DNA of 64,000 nt from Escherichia phage Mt1B1_P17. The notes under the pieces are model-generated. The model was not told the origin of the DNA, did no database searches, and saw only the letters and a list, made by a program, of their open reading frames with translations. How positions within the stretch are numbered: position 1 is the stretch's first letter; each line of letters begins with the position of its first letter. Positions 56,992-63,387 of the stretch are shown here, in pieces. The position numbers and the translations under genes are program-made. The stretch lies in sequence record NC_052662.1. One strand, written 5' to 3'.

Positions 56992-57228
56992 TTATTTATC
57001 TTGCTTGTATCTTACAAGGCGATCACACTCTAGGTCAAGAAATTTCTCCGCATTTCGTTCATGTTTGAGCACAATACATTGTTCTTTCCAGTCTGTAGCT
57101 CTTTGCTGCGCTGCTCCTGGGTCAAAATCCCAAAGCCATGCCGCGAAAAGAACAACCATAACAATTACTAAGAAACTAAACACTATTGGCATTGCACATC
57201 CTCCTGTGTAGCATGGTCTTTTACCCAT
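56992..57228 (-). CDS. small membrane protein
   Basis: 78 aa; transmembrane helix IVFSFLVIVMVVLFAAWLW. Confidence 0.45.
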   Translation of the reverse strand: MGKRPCYTGGCAMPIVFSFLVIVMVVLFAAWLWDFDPGAAQQRATDWKEQCIVLKHERNAEKFLDLECDRLVRYKQDK

Positions 57229-57497
57229 TTTATACGGGCAGCATTCAAATGCAATAGCCCGTTTCTTTGTGCAAAATCATATTTAAACCAGTCTCCGTCA
57301 TCAAACGGGTATTCTTCAGACAATCCTGCCTCACGGAATTGCATTTGCATTTCATAATTTAGATCATCATAACCTCCAGTCCAAAGGTAGAGGCAACTAC
57401 ATAATCCTTTATCATGCCAGAAAGGATTATTATCTGGAGCACCAGCTAATAGCCAGTTATGATATGCCTGATAAAATTCTTTAAGTTCTTCTGACAT
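57183..57497 (-). CDS. paralog family A member
   Basis: 104 aa; FYQAYHNWLLAGAP ... GLC ... YPF ... HLNAARIKWVKDH. Confidence 0.5.
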   Translation of the reverse strand: MSEELKEFYQAYHNWLLAGAPDNNPFWHDKGLCSCLYLWTGGYDDLNYEMQMQFREAGLSEEYPFDDGDWFKYDFAQRNGLLHLNAARIKWVKDHATQEDVQCQ

Positions 57498-58940: not shown

Positions 58941-59232
58941 ACCAGTTGTATTCAGAAGGGTAACGAGCGTAGTTTGGCTTGTACCCCAGCCTTTTCATCT
59001 TAACAGACATACGAGTGAAGCCAAAGGTTGTTTTGCCCTTAGACATAAACTTCTTCCCACTCTTCATTGGCTTCTTAGGGTCTTTGATCGTCTGGTGTAA
59101 CGCTCGCGCAAGCCACAAAGTGTATGCGCTCGGCACTTGATTAACTTTCATCTTGTTACCTTTCATCGAAACCTCCTCAGTGAACTTCGTGCCAAGTGCC
59201 AAACTCTTCTGCTGATACTTTAGGAACGGCAT
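58933..59232 (-). CDS. hypothetical basic protein
   Basis: 99 aa, Lys-rich. Confidence 0.45.
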   Translation of the reverse strand: MPFLKYQQKSLALGTKFTEEVSMKGNKMKVNQVPSAYTLWLARALHQTIKDPKKPMKSGKKFMSKGKTTFGFTRMSVKMKRLGYKPNYARYPSEYNWFD

Positions 59233-59386
59233 GAGTTTCTCGGTATTTGTTTAAAGCTTTCTCAACGGCTGTAGCAAAAACATCTTGAGATTTGTGAGGC
59301 ATATAATAAGCGCGTCCCATATATGCCAGTGCATCACGTAATTCTTCTGCTTGCTCTTGTGTAACTGTCAACGTGATAGTAACCAT
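59177..59386 (-). CDS. hypothetical protein
   Basis: 69 aa. Confidence 0.4.
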   Translation of the reverse strand: MVTITLTVTQEQAEELRDALAYMGRAYYMPHKSQDVFATAVEKALNKYRETHAVPKVSAEEFGTWHEVH

Positions 59387-59628
59387 TATTCAATTGCCTC
59401 CAATATAAAGTAAGTAATAAGAACCACAACCCAAGAACACGCTAAAGTTAAAAACATATTGATCCAATGTCTTTGCCTTTCTTTTGCTGTGCGTCTTCGG
59501 TAGCCTACAAGTCTATCGTATACATAAGGTCCATCTTCCAAAGAGAAAATCAAAACAATAACGGGAGTAACGAAAAAGACTGCTATAAACAAAACAATCT
59601 CTGCAAGCATTATTTCACCTCGGACCAA
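59386..59628 (-). CDS. membrane protein (two predicted transmembrane helices)
   Basis: 80 aa; hydrophobic segments at both ends. Confidence 0.45.
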   Translation of the reverse strand: MVRGEIMLAEIVLFIAVFFVTPVIVLIFSLEDGPYVYDRLVGYRRRTAKERQRHWINMFLTLACSWVVVLITYFILEAIE

Positions 59629-59909
59629 TCAATAGTGATCCACTCGTATGCCCCGTTCAGATCCATTTCTTTATAAACAACAAGCCCACGCTCACGAAGA
59701 ATTGCTACTGCTTCATCCATCCATTTCACCTGATTGTAGATTTCCCCTGGGTGAGTAGGAGAATTATCCAAACCAAAATCAGATGGCGTGAAATTTCTTG
59801 AAGAGTTTCCCGCTCGTGCTTCAGCAAAACATGTCTCGATCACTTCTTCAACAGGGAAGTTGAAGGAAGCTTCTTTTGCAATACGGCGTAACTGTTCGGT
59901 CAGATTCAT
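59610..59909 (-). CDS. hypothetical protein
   Basis: 99 aa. Confidence 0.45.
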   Translation of the reverse strand: MNLTEQLRRIAKEASFNFPVEEVIETCFAEARAGNSSRNFTPSDFGLDNSPTHPGEIYNQVKWMDEAVAILRERGLVVYKEMDLNGAYEWITIDWSEVK

Positions 59910-59936
59910 CTTATTCTCCTTTCGTTGTGCGAAACA

Positions 59937-60374
59937 TTACAGCAGATCTAATGCTTTCAACTCTTCTTTCAATGATTCAGGCAAGTCACATTCAATGTCA
60001 ATCAGAGATAACAAGTGACCAACAATGCCTTCCAGATGTTGATACTCACTATAACTTATAAATTCAGAATTGTAAACAGAAACATCCTTAGTTTCTTTCA
60101 CAACTTCCCCCGCAGACACGCACATAAAAAAGTTACGCTCTCCGCGAGCTAACAATATCTCCCAACTTCTGAACGGATACTGTCCAGCTTCAATAATATC
60201 CCCGCTGTCCAATAAAGTCAATGAGCAAACAGACCCTGATTCACTAACATCTTCGACGCGGAAACAAGACCCTTCAATCAAAGCCGCCATTTTGAAATTT
60301 TCATCAGAGATCATAGAGAAAGCTTCACAGGCAGCTTTACTTTTGAAACAGTAAACAGCATTAACTTTAAACAT
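59937..60374 (-). CDS. paralog family C member (N-terminal domain only)
   Basis: 145 aa; N-terminal region resembles the two upstream tandem ORFs (VY-x-F ... G ... F-x-V ... G). Confidence 0.45.
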   Translation of the reverse strand: MFKVNAVYCFKSKAACEAFSMISDENFKMAALIEGSCFRVEDVSESGSVCSLTLLDSGDIIEAGQYPFRSWEILLARGERNFFMCVSAGEVVKETKDVSVYNSEFISYSEYQHLEGIVGHLLSLIDIECDLPESLKEELKALDLL

Positions 60375-60386
60375 AACATTCCCCTT

Positions 60387-60842
60387 TTAAACAAAAGATA
60401 CGCCGATGGTAGCAACAACCAAACGTTTATAAACTTCAACCTCTTCTGTAGGATTAGCCATTTTATGCTCTGCTGCTTCTTTCAAAGCTTCTTCATAACT
60501 TTCAAATCCAGAAATACAGGTGTCATCAGTCATTACAACATACCACTCTTCTTTTGTTGTATCAACAGGTTCTTCTTGGGGTTTTCCACGACCACCACGA
60601 ATACCACCGTCAACAAAATAATCTATATGAGCAGAATTGATTATGTAACGATCCCCATCACTAGCAGTGATAACACCGTCTCTCCCTATCACAACAATTG
60701 ACAAGATATTACCATTTGCATCAGTGCTCAACACCTCGAAAAAATTCTCTCCAATGATAGCAGCAATACTGTTATCAAAGGTAGAATATAATCGCATATA
60801 ATCTTCATCCTGGAAACGGTAGACATGACCTTCTTTGAACAT
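60387..60842 (-). CDS. paralog family C member
   Basis: 151 aa; shares N-terminal and C-terminal (EEWYVVMTDD ... EVEVYKRLVVA) regions with 60848..61348. Confidence 0.5.
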   Translation of the reverse strand: MFKEGHVYRFQDEDYMRLYSTFDNSIAAIIGENFFEVLSTDANGNILSIVVIGRDGVITASDGDRYIINSAHIDYFVDGGIRGGRGKPQEEPVDTTKEEWYVVMTDDTCISGFESYEEALKEAAEHKMANPTEEVEVYKRLVVATIGVSFV

Positions 60843-60847
60843 TGGCT

Positions 60848-61348
60848 TTACTCCTTATCAATAGTGATTGTGGCGTTTGCTACTGCAACACGAGCGTAAA
60901 TCTCAACCGTCTTCGACGGATAATCCTTCTTAGCTTTTGTAGCGACTTCAGAAGCTTTTTCAAAACTAGAACAAACATCTACACACTCTGATCCTACGAT
61001 CACAACATGCCATTGTGGTTCTGCTTTACCCATTGTTTCCTCCTTTACTTCTTCAAAATATTTAAATTCTTCGTTATCAATCAAATAAGTATACGAATTA
61101 AACCCTGGGGTAACACCTGCTGTATAGAGGGTACCGTTGATATAAAACTCAAGAACATGACCATACTTATCATCTGTATTCATAACTTTGAAAACTTCGT
61201 TTCCAATCGCTTGGCAAACAGCAATATTTGCTTTGTCATGTGTTGCCATATCTCCTTGGTCAGCAACGCTTTTGAATTTATAAGTAAACCCTACTTTAAA
61301 CACGATGTGCTCCTTCTTGTTCAAGAGTAAAAGGAATGATTTCACCAT
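60848..61348 (-). CDS. paralog family C member
   Basis: 166 aa; C-terminal PQWHVVIVGSEC ... VEIYARVAVA aligns with the downstream paralog. Confidence 0.5.
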   Translation of the reverse strand: MVKSFLLLLNKKEHIVFKVGFTYKFKSVADQGDMATHDKANIAVCQAIGNEVFKVMNTDDKYGHVLEFYINGTLYTAGVTPGFNSYTYLIDNEEFKYFEEVKEETMGKAEPQWHVVIVGSECVDVCSSFEKASEVATKAKKDYPSKTVEIYARVAVANATITIDKE

Positions 61349-61490
61349 AGCTGTATTGCATGGTATTCACTTCTGCTTCTGCACGTTGTGCTAGTTCTAA
61401 TGTTGCACAGATCTTGTAAGGAACAGTGCTGCATTGGCTCCAGCCTGGGGTATTCTTTGTTACTAAATATACAGTAGTTCCTTTATTCAT
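61296..61490 (-). CDS. hypothetical protein
   Basis: 64 aa. Confidence 0.4.
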   Translation of the reverse strand: MNKGTTVYLVTKNTPGWSQCSTVPYKICATLELAQRAEAEVNTMQYSYGEIIPFTLEQEGAHRV

Positions 61491-61944
61491 AACTTTCTCC
61501 TCCTAACTCATCATACCATTTCAAAGCGTCTTTTGGAAGCATACCAAAATCTTCTTTCAGTTCTTTTTCAATCTCTTCTTGCATTTCCATCAGCGTTTTC
61601 AGTTGACGGACTTTTTTGTGCATAGCCACATTCCTTTCATTAAGGTTTGTCACTACATTATTTGCACGACTCGGTGGAAATGACAAAGGTTTCACGGGAA
61701 GATAATCTTCGATATTATCTAGTGCGTTACGAAAATTATGATCCAAGAAACGCACATCTACACGATTGTAATCGGCAGCTACAACAGTGAACACTTTAAA
61801 CGGCACATTGGATAAAGTATGTTGCACACAGACAGTACCCATATTACCTTCAATTTTACTGGTAACTTCCAGCAAACCTGTATGAGCACTAACATAATCG
61901 TGAACACATTGCACATAAGCTGCCAGTATAGTGAATTGTCTCAT
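61483..61944 (-). CDS. hypothetical protein
   Basis: 153 aa. Confidence 0.5.
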   Translation of the reverse strand: MRQFTILAAYVQCVHDYVSAHTGLLEVTSKIEGNMGTVCVQHTLSNVPFKVFTVVAADYNRVDVRFLDHNFRNALDNIEDYLPVKPLSFPPSRANNVVTNLNERNVAMHKKVRQLKTLMEMQEEIEKELKEDFGMLPKDALKWYDELGGESYE

Positions 61945-62189
61945 TTTCTACCTCCCCATAATGCTAACATTTTATTGAAAATGGAAACGCGTCGTGCGCG
62001 AGATGCCATATCATAGTTCATTCTTTCCGTCTCTGCAAGAAATTGATCTACTGTAATCAACGCTTCTGTTTTCTCTTTCAGAGTTTGCATATTCATCCAT
62101 TCACATTCGGAGTACCAATTATCGAAATACAAACTATCAAGAAGATCCATTGCTGCTTCGTTCTGTTGTGGTGTGATCATTGCACACAA
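61941..62189 (-). CDS. hypothetical protein
   Basis: 82 aa. Confidence 0.45.
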   Translation of the reverse strand: MCAMITPQQNEAAMDLLDSLYFDNWYSECEWMNMQTLKEKTEALITVDQFLAETERMNYDMASRARRVSIFNKMLALWGGRK

Positions 62190-62192
62190 CCT

Positions 62193-62423
62193 TTAATAGA
62201 CAATTTCATATTCGTGAGGAAAGAAAACATAATCTTCCCCTTCTCGTGCATCTATCTCGTCCCAAAACCACTCCTGCACTTCCATCATCTTCGAGAATCG
62301 CACATGAGCAAGCCCACTGTATTCCACTGTAGCTTCCAACACAAGTGGAAATTTTGCATGTGCCAATCCTTTATAACCACCATCATTCTCAATACGAATT
62401 TTCATACGTTTCATGTTATGCAT
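62193..62423 (-). CDS. paralog family B member
   Basis: 76 aa; MKIRIEN ... EWFWDEIDAREGEDYVFF. Confidence 0.5.
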   Translation of the reverse strand: MHNMKRMKIRIENDGGYKGLAHAKFPLVLEATVEYSGLAHVRFSKMMEVQEWFWDEIDAREGEDYVFFPHEYEIVY

Positions 62424-62625
62424 CTTTCATATTCTCCACGAAGTGACGAGCAACAGGATTCCCGTGGAAATATTCATTGATGAAATCGATCACACACGTT
62501 TCACTGCCTGTCACAACGGACGGTGCGAAGTTTCGGAACTGCACGAGTACACGACTTGCATTAGCAAGGGTGTGCACACGATCAGTGTTAGCTAAATACA
62601 AGGATACAGTTTTCATATTTGACAT
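62416..62625 (-). CDS. hypothetical protein
   Basis: 69 aa. Confidence 0.45.
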   Translation of the reverse strand: MSNMKTVSLYLANTDRVHTLANASRVLVQFRNFAPSVVTGSETCVIDFINEYFHGNPVARHFVENMKDA

Positions 62626-62684: not shown

Positions 62685-63053
62685 TTATTCAATGCAAGCA
62701 TTATTTGCATCTTCAATTCTGTCTTTCACCCATTGAAGACGTAACGTGTTGGTATGACACGCCAAGTTTATACACTCTGAAAGGTAATCCATGCAATCTG
62801 CATTGAACGGAAGATTGTAGTCCAACCCTGCACATGTAAATTGTTTCCTCATTTCATATTTCAAACGGTCCAACAAACTATCCCGCCATCTTCTATCTTC
62901 TTCTCTAGTTGTCTCACCAACAAAATCATTTACATAATCTACCAGACAACCACATAAGCCACTCGTTGTGCGATTCATTGCAGGATAGTTGGCAATCCAT
63001 GCTTTATAGAAGCGAAGCAATGTTGCACTGCTCAACGGAATACTATTTGTCAT
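62685..63053 (-). CDS. paralog family A member
   Basis: 122 aa; FYKAWIANYP ... SGLCGC ... LPFN ... RLQWVKDRI. Confidence 0.55.
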   Translation of the reverse strand: MTNSIPLSSATLLRFYKAWIANYPAMNRTTSGLCGCLVDYVNDFVGETTREEDRRWRDSLLDRLKYEMRKQFTCAGLDYNLPFNADCMDYLSECINLACHTNTLRLQWVKDRIEDANNACIE

Positions 63054-63387
63054 TTTTCTCTCCTTCGTAATCTTGAATTCTATCTAGCACCCATTGTATA
63101 CGATGTTTGTTTTTATAGCAAATAAGTTTTTTATGTTCGAAGGTGTATTCTTCATAACCACCTTCATTAAACGGGAAATTGTAATCCAATCCTGCACTAA
63201 TAAACTGTGATTTCATCTCCTGTTGTAGACGAGGTAACAGTTCATCAGGATATGTTCCCTCTACATACTTAATCAAACATATGCACAAGCCACTCGTTGT
63301 GTGACCTTCTACCTCACCAGCAAGCCAAGCTTTGTAAAACTTCATTAGACGTAAACTACTCAACGGAACATTTTTACTCTCTTGCAT
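63043..63387 (-). CDS. paralog family A member
   Basis: 114 aa; FYKAWLAGEV ... SGLCIC ... FPFN ... RIQWVLDRI; first gene of the leftward block. Confidence 0.55.
   Translation of the reverse strand: MQESKNVPLSSLRLMKFYKAWLAGEVEGHTTSGLCICLIKYVEGTYPDELLPRLQQEMKSQFISAGLDYNFPFNEGGYEEYTFEHKKLICYKNKHRIQWVLDRIQDYEGEKNDK

Follow-up and report, generated by a model that had tools for sequence, protein, structure and literature searches.

The DNA analysed here, called the window, is a stretch of 64,000 nucleotides (positions 1-64000) from Escherichia phage Mt1B1_P17 (NC_052662.1), a Phapecoctavirus, that is, a phAPEC8-like myovirus of the Stephanstirmvirinae. Close to its end, three neighbouring minus-strand ORFs, named C1, C2 and C3 in this study (Table 1), belong to a block of small, co-oriented genes that lies at the genome end, within a minus-strand block stretching from ~44 kb up to the last position of the window. 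GC skew changes sign near 10 kb and again near 44 kb, marking the coding-strand switches. When positions 59000-62500 were compared with public sequences, 122 phage records were matched, with 98.7% identity to OP562383, and the array genes are listed as 'hypothetical protein' in nearly all matching records. In one record, LR597654, the labels are 'RNA metabolism moderator of RB51' for the C1 orthologue and 'goF mRNA metabolism modulator of RB69' for that of C2.

The gaps between C1, C2 and C3 are only 5-12 nt long, each gene is preceded by its own ribosome-binding site, and a consensus scan found no minus-strand terminator between the three genes, which appear to belong to a single transcription unit. 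In a search for promoter consensus sequences, 20 promoter-like sites were counted vs 15.9 +/- 4.8 expected, so that promoters are not enriched; this result has no bearing on the timing of expression.

In the ORF list, C3 extends from 60848 to 61348 (166 aa); the in-frame ATG at 61348 lies within the upstream 64-aa gene and was rejected as a genuine start. Seven bases beyond an AAGGAG site, a GTG at 61303 overlaps the stop of the 64-aa gene (GTGTTTAA); five relatives carry an ATG at this very position, and the C3 orthologue has an annotated length of 456 nt in OP562383 and OP595145. The ribosome-binding site, the ATG of the relatives and the 456-nt annotations together define C3 as a protein of 151 rather than 166 aa, so that the span of 59937-61348 given in a preliminary description of the locus keeps its lower bound and loses its upper one. 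With the start corrected, all three proteins begin with MFK. The GTG (61301-61303) differs from the ATG of the five relatives by a single base and may lower the translation of C3 in this phage.

Table 1. Genes and domains of the array and neighbouring genes mentioned in the text (positions in the window)
Feature	Position	Strand	Size, pI	Remarks
C1	59937-60374	minus	145 aa, pI 4.4	From the ORF list
C1 N-domain	~60117-60374	minus		GoF-like beta-barrel; N-domain HMM E 3e-26
C1 tail			~58 aa	Acidic, poorly predicted; unrelated to the C-module of C2 and C3
C2	60387-60842	minus	151 aa, pI 4.4	From the ORF list
C2 N-domain	~60609-60842	minus		GoF-like; N-domain HMM 5e-22
C2 linker				Gly/Arg-rich; between N-domain and C-module
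C2 C-module	~60390-60566	minus		beta-beta-alpha-beta; C-module HMM 2e-31
C3	60848-61303	minus	151 aa, pI 5.0	GTG start
C3 N-domain	~61046-61303	minus		GoF-like; short linker after it
C3 C-module	~60857-61033	minus		beta-beta-alpha-beta
Upstream gene	61296-61490	minus	64 aa	Match to phrog_24303, unknown function; outside the GoF-like family
Gene upstream of the array	61483-61944	minus	153 aa	Homologue of phi92 gp001
Small protein	62193-62423		76 aa	
GLCxCL family gene	62685-63053	minus	122 aa	Match to phrog_2510, unknown function
GLCxCL family gene	63043-63387	minus	114 aa	Match to phrog_2510, unknown function
GLCxCL family gene	57183-57497	minus	104 aa	

Paralogy and predicted structure

Whole-protein Smith-Waterman comparisons gave scores of 152 for C2-C3 (z 22.6), 57 for C1-C2 (z 5.4) and 56 for C1-C3 (z 5.2), and in no pair did any of 1000 shuffles equal the real score. 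Restricted to the N-domains (~85 aa), the z values were 8.3 (C1-C2), 9.0 (C1-C3) and 11.6 (C2-C3), again with 0/5000 shuffles reaching the real scores. C2 and C3 also have a C-terminal module of ~55 aa in common (z 13.1, 5000 shuffles), with the motif WYVV...EEVEVYKRLVVA in C2 and WHVV...KTVEIYARVAVA in C3, whereas the tail of C1 is unrelated to the tails of C2 (z 0.2) and C3 (z -0.7; 5000 shuffles). These results bear out the preliminary description, which had read the three ORFs as tandem paralogues with a common N-terminal region and a C-terminal segment confined to the two larger proteins, and which had named alignment against shuffled controls and structure prediction as the ways to check it.

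N-domain identity between the paralogues is 21-36%, and at the DNA level only short repeats are found between them, of which just that at the common gene start (first 11-14 nt) is meaningful. The low identity of the N-domains and the restriction of DNA likeness to the gene starts indicate that the duplications are old. No further copy of the domain was detected in the 64-kb window by phmmer, hmmsearch or iterated jackhmmer. A second paralogous family, characterized by a GLCxCL motif, is present on the same strand (Table 1), its three members having Smith-Waterman z values of 15-47 against shuffles.

All three proteins are acidic (net charge -7 to -15, pI 4.4-5.0), as are their isolated N-domains, and the near-invariant residues of the family (M1, F2, K3, Y8, F10, I33, F38, G48, G63 and F83) belong to the hydrophobic core or are glycines. 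AlphaFold2 models were built on an 18-sequence family alignment (hereafter A2) for C3. The C3 model consists of two confidently predicted domains (mean pLDDT 86), namely a beta-barrel with two inserted helices (residues 1-86) and a beta-beta-alpha-beta module (residues 99-137), which flank a disordered linker (residues 89-95, pLDDT <50). In the C1 model, the N-domain has the same topology (pLDDT ~88) and the tail (residues 88-130) stays below 50. The predicted N-domains of the paralogues superpose at 1.2-1.8 A over 90-94 alignment columns in Foldseek. The barrel is predicted to be a bent antiparallel one of the SH3-like or 'LSm-like' type, with FeoA and DtxR-type SH3 domains as the closest solved structures. 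The proteins combine an N-domain, a flexible acidic linker and a variable C-terminal domain.

Conservation, gene content and breakpoints

Orthologues from 11 related genomes were collected from GenBank phage records, and dN/dS was calculated pairwise by the Nei-Gojobori method. The ratios were 0.13 for C1 (12 sequences), 0.16 for C2 (9 sequences) and 0.36 for C3, the last having little power as it comes from 6 sequences with ~1% divergence and very few substitutions; the flanking genes gave 0.09-0.35. Orthologues are 96-100% identical, and the DNA identity of the trio is 95.7-99.2% across 60/60 matching records. C1 occurs in all 60 of these records with a protein identity of at least 95.9% wherever it stands alone, and 9 records in an 80-90% identity band apparently reflect the joining of C1 by BLAST to an adjacent two-barrel gene. 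Judging from these ratios and identities, the array genes are under ordinary purifying selection, like their neighbours, and the diversifying selection suggested in the preliminary description is not borne out. Phages differ in how many family members they carry and in which combination, and not in the sequences of those members.

Among relatives, far greater divergence is seen in the 153-aa gene upstream of the array (dN 0.14, dS 0.40, amino-acid changes in 68/153 codons) than in its neighbours (dN ~0.01), which suggests allelic replacement rather than gradual change. Its phi92 homologue, gp001, is annotated 'transcription-repair coupling factor fold', and the Pfam TRCF match of the gene itself reaches merely E 0.06.

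Natural isolates carry one to four family genes (Table 2). About two-thirds of the records are viable isolates without C3, and nepoznato and ukendt are without C2, which argues that C2 and C3 may be dispensable. Besides the single-barrel genes, a 261-aa gene (designated NNC) combines two barrels with one C-module, for example in ESCO13 and ukendt, and metagenomic relatives with two or three serial barrels were also detected (P0018, P0037 and P0046, the latter two with three). Barrels and C-modules are recombined as well. The phAPEC8 hybrid, gp239 (locus L012, 1648-2097), joins a C2 barrel (99% identity) to an NNC C-module (98%), and in a gene of phiWec190 (locus L005, 3001-3519) a C2-like barrel (41%) is paired with a C-module of the C3-like kind (42%). 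In most loci examined, the 64-aa gene is gained or lost together with C3 as one cassette; ukendt has the 64-aa gene without C3.

Table 2. Family genes and the 64-aa gene in related phages
Phage	Family genes	64-aa gene
nepoznato	C1 only	
ukendt	NNC + C1	present
vB_EcoM_01	C2 + C1	absent
phAPEC8	hybrid + C1	absent
ESCO13, phAPEC8_ev052	C2 + NNC + C1	absent
Window, ABPW7, DE16, tuntematon	C3 + C2 + C1	present
ESCO37, ECO340P2	C3 + C2 + NNC + C1	present
phiWec190	two divergent two-domain genes	
phi92	one gene, gp003 (third gene after the left terminal repeat)	

The breakpoints of gain and loss are sharp and coincide exactly with start codons or conserved gene starts (ATGTTTAAAG...). They were located at 60374, 60842, 61303 and 61490 in the window and at 2733, 2433 and 3918 in the loci L014, L009 and L003, respectively, and their context is either a shared string of 11-14 nt (ATGTTTAAAGT[AGG]) or a ribosome-binding site followed by ATG. 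ATGTTTAAAGT marks the limits of the NNC cassette that lies between C2 and C1, a ribosome-binding site plus ATG marks those of the cassette of the 64-aa gene and C3, and in ukendt the switch from the C3-upstream context to NNC coding sequence takes place within ATGTTTAAAGTAGG. The simplest explanation of these sequence patterns would be that the array expands and contracts by recombination at short conserved gene starts.

Two additional genes carry pieces of the array. In nepoznato (locus L013, 2027-2479), which lacks C2 and C3, the last ~28 codons of C2 are kept at 100% identity as the 3' end of an annotated 150-aa gene occupying the usual place of the 153-aa upstream gene; this 150-aa gene looks like a deletion fusion. 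The metagenomic protein P0026 (141 aa) is a chimera whose N-terminus resembles the 76-aa protein of the window (MHNMKRMKIRIE...) and whose C-terminal half is the tail of a two-barrel GoF-like gene with its C-module; this, too, points to the shuffling of cassettes in the early region.

Relationship to GoF and possible role

All three proteins matched the same PHROG families (phrog_622, 3710, 5347 and 5804) through residues 1 to ~95, with weak matches also to families named goF. The E-values were 7.8e-10 (phrog_622) and 6.4e-7 (phrog_3710) for C1 and 8.6e-33 for C2, the latter being a full-length match to phrog_3710. GoF of phage T4 is itself a full-length member of phrog_622 (4.6e-38) and also matched phrog_3710, 5347 and 5804. 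In hhalign, A2 aligned with T4 GoF at 93.4% probability (E 2.4e-7), placing residues 2-85 onto GoF residues 5-89, which fall in the published GoF N-domain (residues 1-91). When A2 was searched by hmmsearch against 1.84 billion representative proteins, just 34 were found at E up to 1e-3, among them P0035 (E 4.8e-6), which represents a cluster that goes under 'goF mRNA metabolism modulator' in the Aeromonas phages PX29 and AsFcp; iterated jackhmmer pulls in T4 GoF as well. Pairwise comparison with the GoF N-domain gave z ~6 for the N-domains of C1 and C3 and a non-significant z of 1.6 for that of C2. With the C1 model, Foldseek matched the 'GoF putative mRNA metabolism modulator' of VR7 (E 2.4e-5), and a Foldseek search of predicted viral structures matched dozens of uncharacterised proteins of 145-180 aa from T4-like phages. 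Pfam gave nothing above threshold for C1-C3, and its only hits were sub-threshold (DUF2782, DUF7336 and, for C3, FRD2); a sequence search of the PDB with the family profile gave nothing meaningful, and no related loci were found in viral contigs with C2 alone as the query.

Based on these homologies, C1-C3 are very probably members of the GoF family. Our main reading, to which we assign a probability of roughly 0.7, is that the triplet represents an anciently diverged tandem array of GoF-family genes. Their products would likely be early accessory binders in the sphere of mRNA metabolism or host factors. The proposal of the preliminary description that the array encodes a host-interaction factor becomes plausible through membership of this family, apart from the selection regime attached to it.

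In T4, GoF is an early, abundant (~20,000 copies per cell) and dispensable protein (PMC12152347). The goF mutants D25Y and G84R allow T4 to grow on certain rho mutants, and GoF(D25Y) stabilises gene 41 mRNA post-transcriptionally (PMC12152347). In reporter assays, RNA was stabilised only by the D25Y mutant and not by wild-type GoF or MotB.1 (PMC12152347). The genes of the array would most likely be co-expressed early in infection; the hints are positional, namely their tight packing in a co-oriented block of small genes and the place of phi92 gp003 as third gene from the left terminal repeat. Their products would act as non-enzymatic binders encoded by accessory genes, with one to four per isolate. 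The conserved barrel may dock on a common partner with a part in mRNA metabolism or in transcription termination, the candidates being RNA itself and host factors like Rho and the degradosome, and the variable C-terminal part would then set what is recruited or blocked. Gene starts (ribosome-binding site and ATGTTTAAAG...) would be the sites at which recombination produces new versions of the array. The location of the conserved residues in the hydrophobic core and at glycines argues for binders rather than enzymes. The acidity of the proteins and their barrels speaks against direct non-specific RNA binding and matches the absence of an RNA effect for wild-type GoF. Binding to RNA or to a host factor as the actual mechanism is put forward only tentatively, and we consider it possible rather than probable.

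Among the other explanations, a chance or compositional similarity, or ORFs that are not genes, could appeal to the low pairwise identity of C1 to C2 and C3, and was excluded for practical purposes (we give it a negligible chance) by the shuffles (0/5000), the shared PHROG families, the confident and superposing N-domain models, the purifying selection on orthologues in dozens of genomes and the ribosome-binding site before each gene. A role in metal handling, with kinship to FeoA or the SH3-like domain found in DtxR/IdeR repressors, is extremely unlikely, considering that sequence identity to these proteins is just 5-15%, that Pfam returns no FeoA match and that no cluster of His, Cys, Asp or Glu is conserved, the invariant residues being hydrophobic or glycine, and the published analysis of GoF came to the same conclusion (PMC12152347). 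The presence of tandem paralogues with such divergent N-domains, in a region of variable gene content, would fit a rapidly diversifying host-interaction factor (for example receptor-, immunity- or defence-facing) whose copies are under positive selection. Against this explanation, which we regard as quite improbable, stand the near-identity of the orthologues across 60 phage records, dN/dS values that do not exceed those of the flanking genes, the old divergence with no DNA similarity past the gene starts, and the nature of the proteins themselves: their small size, acidity and cytoplasmic type, and sequences in which neither a signal peptide nor features of structural proteins are visible.

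The main rival accepts the family assignment and dissociates it from RNA: as early, accessory binding proteins, C1-C3 would block or imitate some host protein, for example in counter-defence or host shut-off, with the barrel as a generic protein-protein module and the C-termini picking the targets. Such a role is compatible with membership of the GoF family, and we hold it to be rather unlikely since any small domain would be expected to give structural scores of this kind and since the genetics of the family (rescue by goF on rho hosts and the effect on gene 41 mRNA) points to RNA and termination. Returning to the array of early GoF-family binders as the preferred reading, a more far-reaching version of it would regard the array as a combinatorial toolkit, in which one SH3-like docking barrel is combined with interchangeable C-modules or is itself multiplied, and new sets arise by recombination at the 11-14-nt gene starts, providing adaptors for differing targets in host RNA metabolism or defence. 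This version is speculative and unlikely to hold in full; if true, it would mean lineage-specific adaptor sets with consequences for host range.

Whatever the role, three 'hypothetical proteins' of widely used therapeutic-candidate E. coli phages now have a family assignment. The natural variants (one to four genes, hybrids and a constant C1) provide material for finding the partner of the GoF barrel.

Comparison with known systems

The T4 family comprises GoF (comC-alpha), Frd.2 and MotB.1, for which an 'LSm-like fold' and a layout of N-domain, linker and variable C-domain have been described (PMC12152347). The features of Hfq and Sm/LSm proteins (Sm1/Sm2 motifs, a ring-forming oligomer and basic RNA-binding faces) were not found in C1-C3. 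The resemblance to FeoA and to the C-terminal SH3-like domain of DtxR/IdeR (CATH 2.30.30.90) is one of fold only, with no sequence similarity or metal ligands, and no Pfam match to FeoA (PF04023) was obtained at E up to 1. For the C-module, a small alpha/beta fold of the type seen in ClpS or the C-terminal domain of ribosomal protein L7/L12 is only a lead: ClpS is twice as large as the module, and no sequence match to either was found (Pfam gave just DUF7336 at E 0.015, and the PDB none).

T4 GoF (NP_049624) is an early protein of similar size (141 aa vs 145-151 aa) and acidity (pI 4.6 vs 4.4-5.0) to C1-C3, and it has the same layout of barrel, linker and C-terminus and the same barrel-closing motif, (G/K)-(F/Y)-F-(D/E)-E-V. 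The differences are an overall identity of merely ~23%, a C-terminal part that is unrelated in sequence to those of the trio (z about 0 or below), and the replacement of D25, the residue with a known phenotype, by His22 in C3. Frd.2 and MotB.1 are likewise early, small and dispensable in T4. Their hhalign alignments are collinear but weak (17% probability for MotB.1 and 10% for Frd.2); MotB.1 aligns over residues 1-82 and Frd.2 over 17-123, with the same predicted barrel and domain boundaries as the trio, and C3 has a weak Pfam FRD2 match (E 0.028). The proteins of the window are clearly nearer to the GoF branch than to Frd.2 or MotB.1.

Structural relatives also include uncharacterised proteins of 145-180 aa from Proteus phages phiP4-3 and PM2, Pectobacterium phage PM2, Aeh1, S16, CC31, Klebsiella phage F48 and others, which match C3 in Foldseek at E 1e-10 to 1e-5 and 15-27% identity, several T4-like phages giving more than one match to the C3 model. 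Many of these proteins align with it over ~150 columns; as this exceeds the 86-residue barrel, the alignments suggest that the T4-like proteins may also have a C-terminal module. In phi92, HMM searches detected both the N-domain and the C-module in gp003.

The GoF family of early T4 proteins is already known, and the array, which reveals no new kind of system, is an ordinary though tidy example of it. The family has been treated as one of the Tevenvirinae, with phAPEC8-like and phi92-like phages unmentioned (PMC12152347), and literature searches for goF in Phapecoctavirus and for early genes of Stephanstirmvirinae returned nothing useful. What is modestly new is its reach beyond the Tevenvirinae into the Stephanstirmvirinae (Phapecoctavirus, Justusliebigvirus/phi92 and the phiWec group), where it takes the form of variable tandem arrays and multi-barrel fusions with breakpoints at gene starts: T4 has a single goF, whereas three to four members stand in tandem here.
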